Shown: positions 1 to 12,208 of the stretch, in pieces
Position numbering within the stretch: the first letter of the stretch is position 1
Layout: every line of letters begins with the position of its first letter
Origin: a virus
Taxonomy: Duplodnaviria; Caudoviricetes
Length of the DNA: 27,135 nucleotides
IMG/VR virus record: IMGVR_UViG_3300012041_000058
Location: 1 to 27,135 of that record
Direction: 5' to 3' (one strand)
The notes under the pieces: generated by a model
What the model saw: only the letters and a program-made list of their open reading frames with translations
Database searches by the model: none
Told to the model about the DNA's origin: nothing
Position numbers and translations under genes: made by a program

Positions 1-7
1 CTCGTCA

Positions 8-199
8 TTAATACGTGGTCCCTTCCCATTCGACAGGCCAGTTTGGCATCTCTCGCAGCATCCAGGGAAACACCTCCTGCACGCTGTAGAAGATTTGCAT
101 GGCCCCATCACGTCGGATCAGCTCTCTGGTATCATGACGGCGTAAGGCAAACGCCAAGCCAGTATTTGCTGACCAATACCGAACAAGTTCAAGCCGCAT
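8..199 (-). CDS. hypothetical protein (63 aa)
   Basis: ORF with AAGGA upstream of ATG; TAATG stop/start overlap at the window edge. Confidence 0.6.
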   Translation of the reverse strand: MRLELVRYWSANTGLAFALRRHDTRELIRRDGAMQIFYSVQEVFPWMLREMPNWPVEWEGTTY

Positions 200-220: not shown

Positions 221-354
221 TGGTGGGGGAGACTGCCTGACAACAGTGACCTCCCAGATAATTCCAAGATCAGAGGCATGGCTCCCTTGCGGGAAGTCTG
301 TATTCTCCGGACGCCTTGAAAGCTGGACGCTCTTAACATCTGAGCTACTCCCCC
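221..354 (-). ncRNA. tRNA-like RNA with 58-nt structured insertion in the anticodon loop (nominal anticodon UUC)
   Basis: Acceptor GGGGGAG/CUCCCCC plus ACCA; U8A9; D arm GCUC/GAGC; anticodon stem UCCAG/CUGGG enclosing 65 nt that begins CUUUCAA; variable AGGUC; T stem ACUGU/GCAGU with non-canonical loop. Confidence 0.7.
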
Positions 355-360
355 GTATCC

Positions 361-493
361 GACCTCAAGCTGAGCTACTTTCGTTGAAACATCGTGTCCT
401 CAGCTCAAGGCCAACCGATGTCATCGATGCAGAGGGTAGGGACCACCCGCTCGGGGATAGCTCTGTGGTGCAATCCACAGCGTTTAACCTACC
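361..493 (-). ncRNA. candidate structured RNA(s): three-way junction (435-493) and 14-bp hairpin (361-412)
   Basis: GGUAGG/CCUACC closes CUGUGG/CCACAG and GCUAUCC/GGGUGGU; GGCCUUGAGCUGAG pairs with CUCAGCUUGAGGUC. Confidence 0.45.
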
Positions 494-499
494 GGGCAT

Positions 500-540
500 T
501 GGTGGAGGCGGCGGGAATCAAACCCGCATTCAACGCCCCC
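500..540 (-). ncRNA. 41-nt tRNA-Ala/tmRNA-type minihelix (acceptor stem plus T arm only)
   Basis: GGGGGCG-UUGAAU-GCGGG-UUUGAUU-CCCGC-CGCCUCC-ACCA: 7-bp acceptor with G3.U70, A73, encoded CCA, 5-bp T stem with 7-nt loop. Confidence 0.8.
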
Positions 541-560
541 GAAATCGTCACTACTGGTGT

Positions 561-719
561 GCTATTACGCCAAAGGAATATACCATCCAGGACACTCGCC
601 AGTCGAAACCAGCTACTCGCGGTGACGCCTTGCCGCGTTGCATCCTACGATTCCACTCATTATAGGTAGGGCTGGTTAGTGTTCCAGCCTGGACGCTTCT
701 AATCCCACCTGCCAATAGC
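561..719 (-). ncRNA. candidate ~160-nt rod-like structured RNA
   Basis: Nested stems GCUAUU/AAUAGC, GGGAU/AUUCC, CGUCCAGG/CCUGGAUG, ACACU/AGUGU, AACCAGC/GCUGGUU, capped by CCUAC/GUAGG and CGCGG/CCGCG hairpins. Confidence 0.5.
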
Positions 720-731
720 GAACCTCAAAAT

Positions 732-807: not shown

Positions 808-1083
808 GCCCATCCTTTCTGTTGCCAGGCGATGGGCCTTCCCCGTCTAATCAATGATTAGGCAGCAATGGGCAGCGCGTAGCTGTCTTTTGCTTGTTGT
901 GCTGTTTATCGCCTGTCACCGGCTACCCGATCCTCGCACGTCAGTCCAACGCCCGTCGAACCTAAGTCACCCCCATCAGGGGAACACCAGGAACTGCGAA
1001 CCAGTTCCCCGATGTCCCCTTGGTGGAGGTGGCGGGATCTGCCCCCGCGTCCGAACGCCATTCCTTCATGGTCATCAGATCAA
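808..1083 (-). ncRNA. ssrA: circularly permuted (two-piece) tmRNA
   Basis: Acceptor piece ends GGAC-GCGGG-GGCAGAU-CCCGC-CACCUCC-ACCA at 1021; 46-nt hairpin intervening segment 1020-975; coding piece starts GGGGGUGA..GGUUCGACGGG at 974 (G3.U70); tag frame (AQQ)AKDSYALPIAA-stop at 902/893-858; CCUGGCAACAGAA hairpin near the 3' end. Confidence 0.92.
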
Positions 1084-1187
1084 GCTCAAAATCTTTGGTT
1101 AATCTCGCTTACCCCACCAAAAGGTCTTTACCACAGCGAGCCTTTGGCCAGTCATTATGATGCCGTGCGTCAGACTGGCAATTGAGC
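1084..1187 (-). ncRNA. unrecognised pseudoknotted RNA motif, copy A
   Basis: GCUCAA/UUGAGC closes GCCAGUC/GACUGGC and CUCGCU/AGCGAG; loop UUUGGU pairs with downstream ACCAAA; second copy at 4408-4508. Confidence 0.75.
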
Positions 1188-1201
1188 ACGAGCATATCTC
1201 A

Positions 1202-1786
1202 CTAAAACCTGAAATCCACCGGCAATGCGATCCTCAGAAAGGTCCTCTGCGTGTCAACCGGCATCACCATCGACTCATGGACACAATCCGGACTCAGCAA
1301 CCAGCCGTAGTTAGCCTCTAGGGCCTCACCAGCGCCGATTACAGCCCCGATATGAGACAGGTCGCCGTCTGGGCCAGGCTGACCATCGAAGTCGCCCCTA
1401 AAGGCCTTACAGCCAGCTACAGAGGCAGCTACAATCACCGGCATCCGTCGGTAGGGCTCCCCCGTTGAGACATTGTTGCAGCCATGAAGCCATCCTCCGC
1501 TACCACCGTGGCCCCAATCCATCTGATCTGGTCGGAAGCACCCATCAACATGAGGATCAGGCTTCCGGTGTGACATCCCAGCCTTCACCAGCTTCTCATC
1601 AACGGTCATATGGACCCGTCCCTTGTAAAGGCCAGCACCGCTCACCAGATCCAGCACGACCTCCATGTAATCCTCGAATCCAGACGGCATGGTGGGCCGC
1701 TCGACATCAAAGGAATGCATGTAAATCTGTCGGTTCTGGAACGGCAGTTCAACGTGACCTAAACGACGATAATCACTATGCAACAT
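1202..1786 (-). CDS. 2OG-Fe(II) dioxygenase-like (DSBH) protein
   Basis: HxD motif (PHVDG), distal His (CVHES) and C-terminal RTFLR, a pattern typical of phage 2OG-Fe(II) oxygenases. Confidence 0.65.
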   Translation of the reverse strand: MLHSDYRRLGHVELPFQNRQIYMHSFDVERPTMPSGFEDYMEVVLDLVSGAGLYKGRVHMTVDEKLVKAGMSHRKPDPHVDGCFRPDQMDWGHGGSGGWLHGCNNVSTGEPYRRMPVIVAASVAGCKAFRGDFDGQPGPDGDLSHIGAVIGAGEALEANYGWLLSPDCVHESMVMPVDTQRTFLRIALPVDFRF

Positions 1787-4006: not shown

Positions 4007-4215
4007 CAGTCACCAAGCACAATCGATGGGTCCAGTTGCACCACTTCGAGCTGTGCCAGTTCCTTCCGAAGTTCAGCGATGTTTTCTTGACTAGCAAGGA
4101 TGTTGGCCTGTTGTCGAACGATAGCCTCGATGATCGTCTCGGCGGTGCGGAGCGCATCCTGCTCCTTCCGTTCGTTCTTGTCAGCGATGATCTTACGAAG
4201 TTTGTCTGTTTCCAC
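4006..4215 (-). CDS. hypothetical coiled-coil protein
   Basis: GGAGG RBS before GTG. Confidence 0.7.
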   Translation of the reverse strand: METDKLRKIIADKNERKEQDALRTAETIIEAIVRQQANILASQENIAELRKELAQLEVVQLDPSIVLGD

Positions 4216-4407
4216 GTTAATCCTCCATCAATTATCGAACAACGCGCGGCCAGATTGCCCTAAGCTAAGCCCGCTTGACATCCCCCTCAGGGATGTGCGC
4301 TGCATTAACATACAGGAGCAACCCAGCAAGTCTCCCGGACATCAAGGTAAGCCAAGGTGTTGAAACATCGCAGCTCCCTCAAAGTCCCTGCGATATCGTC
4401 ACCGTTT

Positions 4408-4508
4408 TCAAATTGTGTGGTTTGATCGCCTTTCATCACCACAAGTTTTCTATTGCAGGCGAACTTCAGCTAGTCATTAATACGATGGCCCGTCAGACTA
4501 GCAATTGA
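4408..4508 (-). ncRNA. unrecognised pseudoknotted RNA motif, copy B
   Basis: UCAA/UUGA closes GCUAGUC/GACUAGC and UCGCCU/AGGCGA; loop UGUGGU pairs with ACCACA; compensatory changes relative to copy A. Confidence 0.75.
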
Positions 4509-4608
4509 GAGCCAAATCGATGCTGCCACTCGCTACCCACCCATTAGACATGAACAGGCGATTGCACGCCAGCACTATCTAACAGCCTAAGCCTTGTCCG
4601 CAGCAATG

Positions 4609-4740
4609 TTACTTCCGCTTGATCAACGGAATCCCCGCCAACTGTTCCTTTCGTCGCAGCAACGCAGCGAAGTCAGCTTCAGCTTGATCGAGATGCCCCA
4701 CAACGAACATCCCGGTCTCCTTGTCGGTTTGCTTCAGCAC
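4609..4740 (-). CDS. small hypothetical protein (43 aa, MLKQTDKETG...), not in the ORF track
   Basis: GAGG RBS plus GTG immediately after the stop of 4742..5281. Confidence 0.5.
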   Translation of the reverse strand: MLKQTDKETGMFVVGHLDQAEADFAALLRRKEQLAGIPLIKRK

Positions 4741-4741
4741 A

Positions 4742-5281
4742 TCAAACCTCAATCAACGTGACAGCATTTACCAATGAAAGTTTGCCATCCAAAGCACCCT
4801 CCACCGCTTCCAATCCCTCGATGTTCTCCGATAGGGCCTTCTCATCGATGTTCACCGTCAAATCGATGGCCTTCGCCTCAGCGCCTGGCATAGCAACGGT
4901 TCCACCACGCTGCTGGGTCTCACGCCTCGCACGATCCAAGCCCGATCGAATGTTGACGAGGAACTGCCGATTCTCGGGAGCCTGTTCCTTCCGCCATGTC
5001 AGCCACTCGGCAACCGACATCTCCGTATCGCCGATCTTGATCCGGGTGGTGTGATTGGCTTGCTGGATGGCCATCCGGATCGCCAAATGCCGATTCTGCA
5101 AGTCGCGGAGAGCCTGAGTCTCTTCCTTGATGAACTTCGCGGAGCCGCCCTGCTTCTCCAGCGGATCAACAAGCCCCATCGGTCTCGACAGATAACTCAG
5201 GATGGACGTGCGCTTCTTTTCGCAGCGCTTGACGATGGTCTTCAGCTCTGCGAGTCCTTCGGTGATGGTGAATTGTGCCAT
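4742..5281 (-). CDS. DIP1984/DUF6847-like alpha-helical protein
   Basis: Pattern TITEGLAELK...I..AIQQAN..T.I....MSVAE...LD.KLS..NA.T.IEV resembles the DIP1984-like family (recognised by eye). Confidence 0.6.
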   Translation of the reverse strand: MAQFTITEGLAELKTIVKRCEKKRTSILSYLSRPMGLVDPLEKQGGSAKFIKEETQALRDLQNRHLAIRMAIQQANHTTRIKIGDTEMSVAEWLTWRKEQAPENRQFLVNIRSGLDRARRETQQRGGTVAMPGAEAKAIDLTVNIDEKALSENIEGLEAVEGALDGKLSLVNAVTLIEV

Positions 5282-6042: not shown

Positions 6043-6071
6043 TTGACAATCAGCCCAAAATGTGCTAAACT
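6043..6071 (+). promoter_or_regulatory. sigma70-type promoter antisense to the NADAR gene
   Basis: TTGACA-17 nt-TAAACT with extended TGn; TTGACAATC shared with promoters at 13120 and 24390. Confidence 0.55.
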
Positions 6072-6523
6072 TGGGGTGTTACACCGCACAACGACTTGCG
6101 AATCTCCATCAACATCAGGCCCAATCGATTGGCGCCTTCGTTGACGTGTCCCTTCCGCTTACAAGTACACTTTCCCCATACCACGTCGTGCCACCAATTG
6201 CCCTCGACAAGCTCCCGGTTGCCAGTTTCTTGCAGCTTCCGTGAAAGATCGGGATCAAGGAACTTCTGTCGCAGCAGATCCAGCATCACCACGAACCGAA
6301 CAGCATTCCAATCCGGCCTCAGCTTTGCGGAATGTCCAATCCGCTTGGCCATCTTTGCAGCATCGCTCGGAAGTGCAGCGAGCTTGGCGCGGTAGATTGG
6401 ATCTAGCGATTTGGCAGCTTGATAGGCATGCTCCACAGAGCCATATCGGACTCCATCCAATTCGACCACGACAGGCCAGAAATTGGAGAGCCAACGATAT
6501 TCTCCGTCAAACTTGTTGATCAT
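6065..6523 (-). CDS. NADAR family (YbiA-like) N-glycosidase / ADP-ribosylhydrolase
   Basis: LSNFW, SVEHAYQAAK, RPDW, QKF, TG.RELVE, D..WG and G.NRLG..LM.IR motifs. Confidence 0.92.
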   Translation of the reverse strand: MINKFDGEYRWLSNFWPVVVELDGVRYGSVEHAYQAAKSLDPIYRAKLAALPSDAAKMAKRIGHSAKLRPDWNAVRFVVMLDLLRQKFLDPDLSRKLQETGNRELVEGNWWHDVVWGKCTCKRKGHVNEGANRLGLMLMEIRKSLCGVTPQV

Positions 6524-8455: not shown

Positions 8456-9238
8456 TTACTCCACTTCATCCATAATGTCCCGATCGAACACATCGATGAA
8501 CGGTGTGATATTCGACGGGAGTTTGATCTTCGGTGGCTCGATGTCTGGCTTGACAATGCGGAGACACGCTGCACACCAGTGCATACGATGCTTCTCACAA
8601 CGCTCGGTTGGAAGTGGCTGGGCCATCCTACGGGCCTTCGCATCGGTCGCTTCAGCAAGCATCTGACCGTATAGCTCTCGTTGGCTGTTGTTAAGCCTTG
8701 CCTCACGTTCCAACGCTGCGAACTTCTCACGGCATGCCTCGCAGCCGATCCCACTCATCGATACAGGCTTACGCTTCCAACGCTTCCAGATTTCCTTCGG
8801 TCCGCGCTCTTCGTCCTCTCGAAACTGAACGAAGCCACCAATGGTGATCTTGTGGAAGTCATTGAAAACAGTATACTTAGCGCGTGATACCTTGTATACC
8901 TTGCCATTTCGACGCAGCATCGGCTGGCTGATACGTATGGTGGCGCCGTGAACCTCTCCAGGCATCACAACACCGCATCCGATACAGATCAAGCCAACAC
9001 TATTGCCGTCAAGCAATACCGACCGTTGCGGGCATGTTTCGATGATCTTCTCGGTGCAACCGAAGACATGCTTGCCTAACTTGAAGCAGGCGCCGCACAT
9101 CGACTCAGCGTTGCAGGTGATCTCCGTCGCAGTGCCGCGAGACAGCAAGATTTCAAGCCAATTACTGTAGAACGGCACGCCTCGCAATGGAGACAATTCC
9201 AAGATCTTGGTGCCGTCGGCAAGCGTGGAGACTTTCAT
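8456..9238 (-). CDS. Cys-rich hypothetical protein
   Basis: 260-aa ORF with several CxxC motifs; ATGA coupling. Confidence 0.7.
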   Translation of the reverse strand: MKVSTLADGTKILELSPLRGVPFYSNWLEILLSRGTATEITCNAESMCGACFKLGKHVFGCTEKIIETCPQRSVLLDGNSVGLICIGCGVVMPGEVHGATIRISQPMLRRNGKVYKVSRAKYTVFNDFHKITIGGFVQFREDEERGPKEIWKRWKRKPVSMSGIGCEACREKFAALEREARLNNSQRELYGQMLAEATDAKARRMAQPLPTERCEKHRMHWCAACLRIVKPDIEPPKIKLPSNITPFIDVFDRDIMDEVE

Positions 9239-9702
9239 CGGAGTGCCTCGATGAGTGTGTCGTAAGTGAGCTTGTAAATGCCGGGATTCTTACGCTCTCG
9301 ATTCCCAGCCACGTTCAGCACCGCGATGTTGTTCGCTACGATCCACTTACGCAGATTCTTCGCTGTTTCCTTAGTGCCGTGTTTCTCGAACGTAGCGAGG
9401 ATAAACGGCTTGCCATGCTGTTTACAGAGCTTCCGTGTCAACGCGCTGCCCGGTGAAGACGGATTGCCAAAGATCACAGTGGCATCGCTATCGATTACGT
9501 TTTGTTCGGTCCGAGGTGGATACTCAGCCGACTCATGCTGTTTCAGCTTGTATAACACTCGATCACCGATGCAGAGCGGGCCTTCGTCTGTTCGCCAGCC
9601 ATATGGCACCCATCCGCCAGTCTCAATCCCTAGCTTGATCGCAGCGTCCAATCCAGCACGATCACTTCCCGTTTGCCCGCCGCTCACAACGCGTGTAATC
9701 AT
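9235..9702 (-). CDS. SLOG superfamily 'putative molybdenum carrier' (cpYpsA-like) protein
   Basis: VSGGQTG.DRAGL, GGW.P.G, Y..RT..NV.DSDAT, LNVAGNRE motifs. Confidence 0.88.
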   Translation of the reverse strand: MITRVVSGGQTGSDRAGLDAAIKLGIETGGWVPYGWRTDEGPLCIGDRVLYKLKQHESAEYPPRTEQNVIDSDATVIFGNPSSPGSALTRKLCKQHGKPFILATFEKHGTKETAKNLRKWIVANNIAVLNVAGNRERKNPGIYKLTYDTLIEALR

Positions 9703-12098: not shown

Positions 12099-12208
12099 GC
12101 TTACCTGCCGCTATCCACGTTTCGCATGCGGGCTTTAGACCGCCAATGGCCGTGTTACGGTGTGGAGGTAGACCGCCTCCACTCGGTAGCCTTGTTACTT
12201 CGCTACGC

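Follow-up and report, generated by a model that had tools for sequence, protein, structure and literature searches.

The locus

The window analysed here is a 27,135-nt stretch of DNA, positions 1-27,135 of IMG/VR record IMGVR_UViG_3300012041_000058 (Duplodnaviria; Caudoviricetes). Its rightward genes include those for a terminase, a major head protein and a minor capsid protein, with four HNH/endonuclease VII genes among them. The leftward genes are small and mostly without known function, and their region terminates in a non-coding cluster that contains a permuted tmRNA and tRNA-like pieces. A structured RNA motif occurs twice on the minus strand: copy A is placed between a stop codon (1202) and the permuted tmRNA, and copy B lies within a 527-nt gap (4215-4742).

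1202..1786, minus strand: gene without known function (phrog_8970), upstream of copy A, its stop codon 7 nt before P1
1095..1195, minus strand: copy A, the whole conserved element (domain 1 plus domain 2a), 101 nt, from the covariance model and family alignment
1147..1195, minus strand: domain 1 of copy A, an H-type pseudoknot, from pair counts
1195-1186 with 1168-1160, minus strand: P1 of copy A, U1191 bulged, from pair counts
1185-1180, minus strand: L1 of copy A, UCAAUU
1179-1173 with 1153-1147, minus strand: P2 of copy A, from pair counts
1172-1169, minus strand: L2 of copy A, UGAC
1157-1154, minus strand: UAAU of copy A
1095..1146, minus strand: domain 2a of copy A, a double pseudoknot after a 3-nt junction
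1143-1141 with 1124-1122, minus strand: S0 of copy A
1140-1136 with 1108-1104, minus strand: P3 of copy A
1120-1116 with 1099-1095, minus strand: PK of copy A
858..1082, minus strand: permuted (two-piece) tmRNA (Rfam RF04321, 87.5 bits against a cut-off of 47), directly downstream of copy A, a neighbour outside the motif
4417..4519, minus strand: copy B, with the same two domains (domain 1, 4519-4469; domain 2a, 4468-4417)

The permuted tmRNA was missed by ARAGORN at default settings. Its tag reading frame ends LPIAA, and its intervening segment carries a long hairpin. Just downstream of it, on the same strand, lies a degenerate tRNA-like gene at 735-801 (23.5 bits, sub-cut-off, with a poor T-arm), and the other non-coding sequence at 240-730 (minus strand) also looks structured; near 320-350 it resembles the 5' half of a tRNA, for which no 3' half was recognised. 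Positions 500-540 (minus strand) form a tRNA/tmRNA-like minihelix with a 7-bp acceptor stem, a G-U at the third pair, a T-arm and CCA, and without D or anticodon arms. Directly upstream of copy B, positions 4520-4660 (minus strand) are structured and non-coding (z -2.5, 3/200 shuffles), with no Rfam match. The leftward region also encodes NADAR and circularly permuted YpsA SLOG genes (6065-6523 and 9235-9702, both minus strand). Further along the minus strand, a probable type-P1 twister ribozyme lies at 12107-12161 (31.8 bits, E 0.0027, under the Rfam cut-off); its pseudoknot strands, CUA and UAG, are able to pair.

The two copies in the window

An earlier note, made from the sequence alone, had proposed a pseudoknotted RNA present twice with compensatory substitutions. 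The shared core that it quoted is present in both copies, both on the minus strand, and its three compensatory helices are confirmed in A and B. None of 300 first-order Markov copies of the window contained the core pattern, and a covariance model run on the window matched exactly copies A and B, both of which belong to its training set. The limits given for copy A (1084..1187) had to be revised: the element spans 1195-1095 in A and 4519-4417 in B, so the start proposed earlier omits the 5' strand of helix P1. What had been called hairpin 1 does contain the stem described, but this is one stem of an H-type pseudoknot, in which the leader 1190-1186 pairs with 1168-1164. The helices quoted for the second domain are likewise correct, but an additional covarying 3-bp helix, AG[G/U]:[C/A]CU, had been overlooked; of 53 members, 32 have G-C and 19 have U-A as its third pair.

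Other features ascribed to copy A do not extend to the family. A proposed closing stem would require a 5-nt complement in the 20 nt downstream, which 1 of 68 members has (1.7% in the background); UUGA was present in 11 of 68 members, against 9.8% in the background. Copy A had been said to end exactly where the predicted inter-piece helix of the tmRNA begins (1083), but its conserved part stops 13 nt short of the Rfam permuted-tmRNA match starting at 1082. An alpha_tmRNA match at 807-1126 touches the last third of copy A only via poorly aligned, unpaired 5' columns. A special link to the tmRNA is not supported either: the usual neighbours of the motif are tRNAs, and a tmRNA was called in 1 of 14 20-kb regions around members.

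The nested folding energies of the two copies do not stand out (z -1.1 and -0.7), which is what a pseudoknot would give, and the evidence for the fold is therefore covariation. In an ungapped repeat search, A and B were absent as a pair from the top 20 repeat families, and in a similarity ranking the other window copy came 32nd and 47th of 50. Copy B is a divergent family member and not a recent duplicate of A; neither copy resembles the other more than it resembles foreign members, which suggests separate acquisition. A candidate third copy at window positions 1-25 proved to be an ORF stop/start overlap, and the covariance model is silent there.

A family of phage RNAs supported by covariation

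Pattern scans of viral contigs, GTDB genomes and metagenomes (38 of 64 parts of the last, with about 210 stretches estimated) returned 208 descriptor hits, 130 of them distinct and 112 remaining after clustering at 88%. Dropping four with weak pairing left 108 non-redundant members, on viral and metagenomic contigs; the cultured phages RP13, Xoo-sp13, phiHQ and Psa21 also carry the motif. In the GTDB genome scan, nine matches included four true members by pairing, all on MAG contigs, with no sign of a cellular family for the pattern used.

Because the weak-pairing filter itself used pairing, unfiltered hits were counted as well. The nine helix positions that the pattern leaves free all pair in 37 of 51 distinct unfiltered viral hits and in 73 of 95 unfiltered metagenome hits. 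Pairing extends to positions that the filter did not use: the two outer pairs of P2 form in 100/104 and 101/104, and the first P1 pair past the bulge in 93/104. When 38 of the 53 domain-2a members were aligned with MAFFT, namely those free of insertions and long loops, 93% of helix cells paired. The covariation score was 0.578, compared with 0.170 for shuffled controls (0/500) and at most 0.104 with slid partners, controls that ignore kinship among members whose mean column identity is only 69%. The last helix pairs in 76% of cells, which inspection of the alignment by eye traces to a one-column misregister of some 3' ends. Five helices are supported by covariation: P1, P2, S0, P3 and PK.

No Rfam 15 family covers the motif in the window (E ≤ 1) or in 44 other loci (scanned as sets of 4, of 20 at E ≤ 5, of 18 at E ≤ 0.001 and of 2). 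With about 100 covarying homologues and no Rfam family, the RNA deserves the description ‘unrecognised’ that it had been given, and at E ≤ 1 no family fits the motif in the window itself. No description of the motif was found in the literature, where literal core strings gave only unrelated matches; the alignments of Fremin et al. 2023 lie outside this comparison, and the motif may be an unnamed candidate among the 8,495 IMG/VR RNA candidates of that study (PMC10690425). The motif is a real RNA family, apparently uncatalogued, of a general kind that is known, the orphan structured RNAs of phage tRNA islands. Its modular architecture is new.

A conserved pseudoknot joined to exchangeable second domains

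The motif is a two-domain, multiply pseudoknotted phage RNA of about 100 nt. Domain 1 runs in the order P1, UCAAYU, P2 (7 bp), UGAC, the P1 3' strand, a linker, UAAU and the P2 3' strand, with P1 comprising 5 bp, a bulge and a variable extension. In its ~50 nt, some 20 near-invariant bases are grouped at one helix junction (UCAAYU / UCUGACG / UAAUGA). When the pattern left the loops free, L1 was UCAAYU in 13/13 and 15/15 true hits, L2 was UGAC in 14/15 and UAAU was retained in 12/13, several of these hits being close relatives; the rare variants were UUAU, UAUU, UGAU, UUAAUU and UAAAUU. By carrier, UUAU occurs in loci L104 and L359 and UAUU in phiHQ. The base preceding UAAU is A in 47 members, U in 42, G in 15 and C in none (n = 104), and in 86 of 104 members 11-12 nt separate UAAU from the 3' strand of P1. 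P2 tolerates inserted hairpins on either strand, between its second pair and its third. A lengthening of P1 by UCA:UGA is possible from the sequences; both sides are near-invariant, with a compatible C-to-U change in two members and an incompatible change in one (L381).

Domain 2a is a double pseudoknot of three helices ordered a-b-a'-c-b'-c'. It follows domain 1 after 3 nt in 51 of 53 members, and this fixed junction suggests that the two domains form one folded unit. Other members carry an alternative, domain 2b (13 parsed strictly, 22 by a looser test), and 28 have other sequence in place of 2a or 2b. A possible third type, starting GUGUA, lies downstream of domain 1 in L028, L245, L083 and L242. 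Searched alone, domain 2a gave 25 loci, five of them chance matches by eye and the rest about 14 distinct, of which eight have a canonical domain 1. In the six non-canonical loci, domain 2a follows a plain H-type pseudoknot without the core in L363 and L375 (2/200 shuffles each); the pseudoknot ahead of it in L360 is not significant (67/200 shuffles), and none was found in L369, L378 or L380. Domain 2b searched alone gave nine loci, two of them true and both behind a canonical domain 1.

Genomic neighbourhood

A same-strand tRNA lies within 300 nt of the motif in 45 of 93 members, an opposite-strand tRNA in none, and control chance loci had a tRNA in 0/70; for the other 48 of the 93, no tRNA is that close. 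P1 begins -1 to 12 nt past a tRNA end in 13/93 members (within 1 nt in five), and domain 2 ends 2-12 nt ahead of a tRNA in 13 of the 56 members with a parsed end. In two members (L267 and L007/L438), a twister ribozyme ends at P1. On a larger scale, the 20-kb regions of 14 carriers contain same-strand tRNAs in 13 cases, with the motif placed at either end of the cluster or in its middle, and several carriers hold 10-36 tRNAs within 10 kb of a single motif. More tRNAs lie downstream than upstream in nine of the 14 regions, four of which have none upstream; two of the 14 are without a downstream tRNA for about 10 kb.

All 35 carrier records examined, 14 of them near-complete, have one match each. 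The model used for this count was built on domains 1 and 2a, so highly divergent extra copies could escape it, and because the records were chosen as carriers the figure counts copies, not prevalence. No neighbouring protein family is shared, the largest cluster among 737 ORFs spanning three loci, and only 17 of 96 members have a start codon in the 60 nt that follow. TTTT occurs within 15 nt after domain 2 in 15 of 65 members, compared with 6.3% of 1982 background windows, whereas upstream promoter sequences are not enriched (TTGACW in 5/65 against 4.2% in the background). A TROVE/Ro60 gene is present in 7 of 38 carrier records and 3 of 13 near-complete ones (only carrier records being counted), and is missing in RP13 and Xoo-sp13; the nearest lies 2.7 kb from the motif and the rest about 7 kb or more. 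RtcB was found in 0 of 29 records.

Among the cultured carriers, Ralstonia phage RP13 and Xanthomonas phage Xoo-sp13 each have the motif 4-8 nt before a tRNA-Leu. In the jumbo phages phiHQ (a Phikzvirus) and Psa21, it sits between a large gene and the next gene, which in Psa21 encodes an RNA polymerase subunit, and has a stop codon on one side and, on the other, a terminator-like hairpin that carries a U tract. The PA1C counterpart of the upstream gene is annotated as similar to PHIKZ054, which we take to be the nuclear shell protein chimallin. Between the same flanks, PA1C has no copy of the motif but an unrelated segment of 164 nt (L465 737-900); across the rest of the gap, it is 98.7% identical to phiHQ. 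The other 38 phiKZ-like records among the matches listed likewise match only the downstream part. The hosts of all four cultured carriers are beta- and gamma-proteobacteria, and in all, hosts span at least three proteobacterial genera.

Comparison with known RNA classes

Several phage RNAs resemble the motif in part. GOLLD (RF02032) and ROOL are likewise phage-encoded, have multiple pseudoknots and no assigned function, and often lie near tRNAs, an association with phage tRNA islands described in parts of two reports (10.1101/2024.12.08.627333; PMC5737381). They are 400-800 nt long, however, whereas the motif has about 100 nt, small exchangeable domains and no Rfam match. One carrier phage has a GOLLD RNA about 9 kb from the motif. 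The species 1 and 2 RNAs of phage T4 (rnaC and rnaD; NC_000866) are alike in size (119-139 nt), in their packing within a tRNA cluster and in lying on the tRNA strand, but lack the core and end in a tRNA-like T-arm; with no shared core motifs and no covariance-model match in T4, homology to them was rejected.

HDV-like ribozymes are built as a nested double pseudoknot with P3/L3 and P1.1. Theta ribozymes, their minimal form, share with the motif a small, pseudoknotted fold beside phage tRNAs, crossing P1 and P2 helices and an A-rich linker before the last strand. The catalytic C of this class occupies the first position of J4/2, as set out in sections of PMC10879173; in the motif, 0 of 104 members have C at this position, and where P3/L3 would be, between P2 and the P1 3' strand, there are only the 4 nt UGAC. 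Theta ribozymes also cleave flush with the tRNA 3' end, 77% of tRNA-associated ribozymes lying within 1 nt of it according to the same sections (PMC10879173), whereas P1 of the motif starts within 1 nt of a tRNA end in five of 93 members.

Twister ribozymes have stems P1, P2 and P4 and a loop L4 that forms pseudoknots T1 and T2, as outlined in portions of PMC6154101. Domain 1 has no P4/L4 and a single pseudoknot, and the twister-P1 model hits neighbours of the motif but not the motif. When the twister U-A site (with A7 as general acid) and G45 were sought, UAA and GA were found opposed across P2, and UUAU and UAUU variants exist. Hammerheads, including non-circular permutations, were rejected because CUGACG is followed by a variable paired base and GAAA is not conserved, where the class has an uninterrupted CUGAnGA block and a GAAA block (in the part of PMC10085705 that describes it). 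Y RNAs and YrlA carry a Ro60-binding motif, GGUCCGA or GNCGAAN0-1G, and a tRNA-like domain (in extracts of PMC4201824). The motif has AGUCUGA and no D or T arms, the YrlA model gave no match, and TROVE genes are infrequent.

Type III antitoxins (ToxI, CptI and pseudo-ToxI) are H-type pseudoknot RNAs like the motif. They are toxin-specific, consisting of tandem 34-36-nt repeats followed by a terminator and a toxin gene, and a phage pseudo-ToxI mimics the pseudoknot antitoxin to neutralise a host nuclease, as told in passages of PMC5086642. The motif is single-copy, longer and multi-domain, with no repeat array, no shared neighbour gene and no Rfam match, and does not fit this class. Flavivirus xrRNAs combine a short 5' pairing with a loop-to-tail pseudoknot and block RNase J1 in vitro, in the portion of PMC5760640 that deals with them. 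Domain 2a has both elements; the motif differs in lacking a three-way junction, in its strand order and in its DNA phage context.

Possible functions

We consider it possible, at a probability of roughly 40%, that the motif is an accessory small RNA that would be released from abundant phage transcripts and serve as a trans-acting decoy that binds through the invariant junction. Its single copy, the lack of a cis partner, the tight packing with RNA genes, the knots at both ends and the exchange between relatives favour a free, trans-acting small RNA and are the marks of an accessory RNA gene in highly transcribed regions. The RNA would be transcribed within abundant phage transcripts and could be freed by the processing of its neighbours, by RNase P acting on a tRNA that follows it, by 3' trimming of a tRNA that precedes it, or by a twister on its 5' side. 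Knots at both ends may then stabilise it, and the invariant P1/P2 junction could bind a partner, the putative target being a host protein, for instance a nuclease of defence or of RNA decay. The phage-borne ToxI mimic that neutralises a nuclease offers a working analogy, and, among the three functions put forward in the earlier note, a protein-binding RNA is the best contextual fit.

Several observations stand against the decoy. No candidate partner co-occurs with the motif, neither TROVE nor RtcB, and with hosts in several genera it is hard to see one protein as the target, given the toxin specificity of type III antitoxins. About half of the members have no tRNA nearby, so tRNA processing cannot be the general route of release. 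The two copies in the window run against the one-per-record pattern, and one copy per genome with patchy presence would fit a ribozyme too. We advance only tentatively the broader proposal that domain 1 is a new functional module, either an H-type-pseudoknot self-cleaving ribozyme or an RNA-only counter-defence pocket, carried with exchangeable second domains by phages from small ones to nucleus-forming jumbo phages.

In another reading, domain 1 would be a small self-cleaving ribozyme of a new class that punctuates phage tRNA and late transcripts, with domain 2 as a cargo whose 5' end is made by the cut; this seems to us rather unlikely, though of the rival readings it lends itself best to a test. 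A compact core with near-invariant bases at one junction, tolerance of hairpin insertions at a single peripheral P2 point and a position adjoining tRNAs, like that of theta ribozymes, or adjoining twisters would all suit a catalyst. The register to tRNA ends is nevertheless loose compared with theta ribozymes, C never precedes UAAU, and either A of UAAU can be replaced by U, as in L104, L359 and phiHQ. Domain 2a also occurs behind plain H-type pseudoknots without the core, and in two members a twister directly upstream would make a second cut redundant. RtcB is absent from the records searched, and the known classes tested all fail.

A mechanical role in cis is less probable still. Here the knots would hold up exonucleases, chiefly those that enter domain 2 in the 3'-to-5' direction, and shield adjoining RNA much as an xrRNA does, an analogy that draws on the short 5' pairing (AG with CU) and loop-to-tail pseudoknot of domain 2a. 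The enrichment of TTTT after domain 2 and the placement between stop codon and terminator-like hairpin in phiHQ and Psa21 are consistent with such a block. However, each record has a single copy although many RNAs are in need of protection, the strand order is unlike that of the xrRNA three-way junction, and beta- and gamma-proteobacteria have almost exclusively RNase E/G rather than RNase J, by the account in part of PMC3997798. Nor would a purely mechanical role obviously need 20 invariant bases.

The H-type pseudoknot of domain 1, with its invariant loop bases at a helix junction, recalls ligand-binding aptamers. The preQ1 and SAM-II aptamers are H-type pseudoknots with loop bases at the helix junction, and a riboswitch-like pocket at the P1/P2 junction could make the motif a small-molecule sponge or sensor. 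We regard this as improbable: there is no expression platform or consistent downstream gene, as the scarcity of nearby start codons indicates, and no Rfam riboswitch matched in the window or the 44 loci.

Transcription of phiKZ is independent of the host RNA polymerase. The phage encodes its own RNA polymerases, as stated in part of PMC8244752. An RNA-only antiterminator that loads onto RNA polymerase and carries it through long untranslated tRNA clusters would suit a once-per-operon signal and tRNAs lying mostly downstream, but this option of the earlier note is weakened to the point of being very improbable by the motif's presence in phiKZ-like phages with their own RNA polymerases, in phiHQ and Psa21 upstream of a terminator-like hairpin, by its having no fixed place in tRNA clusters, with none downstream in some regions, and by the lack of upstream promoter enrichment.

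It is seldom that a new class of self-cleaving ribozyme or an RNA-based counter-defence is found, and both readings are cheaply testable with an RNA of about 100 nt, five helices that dictate compensatory mutants, and cultured carriers. Even as an orphan, the motif is a widespread, modular RNA family to be counted among the non-coding elements of phage tRNA islands that await explanation. Among the cultured phages, phiHQ and PA1C form a natural pair with and without it. The 164-nt segment in the PA1C slot may be another exchangeable RNA. Between a PHIKZ054-like gene and an RNA polymerase subunit gene, L463 carries a non-coding, apparently structured segment of about 205 nt (1312-1517) that has no Rfam match and is common to about 55 phiKZ-like records at 84-100%.
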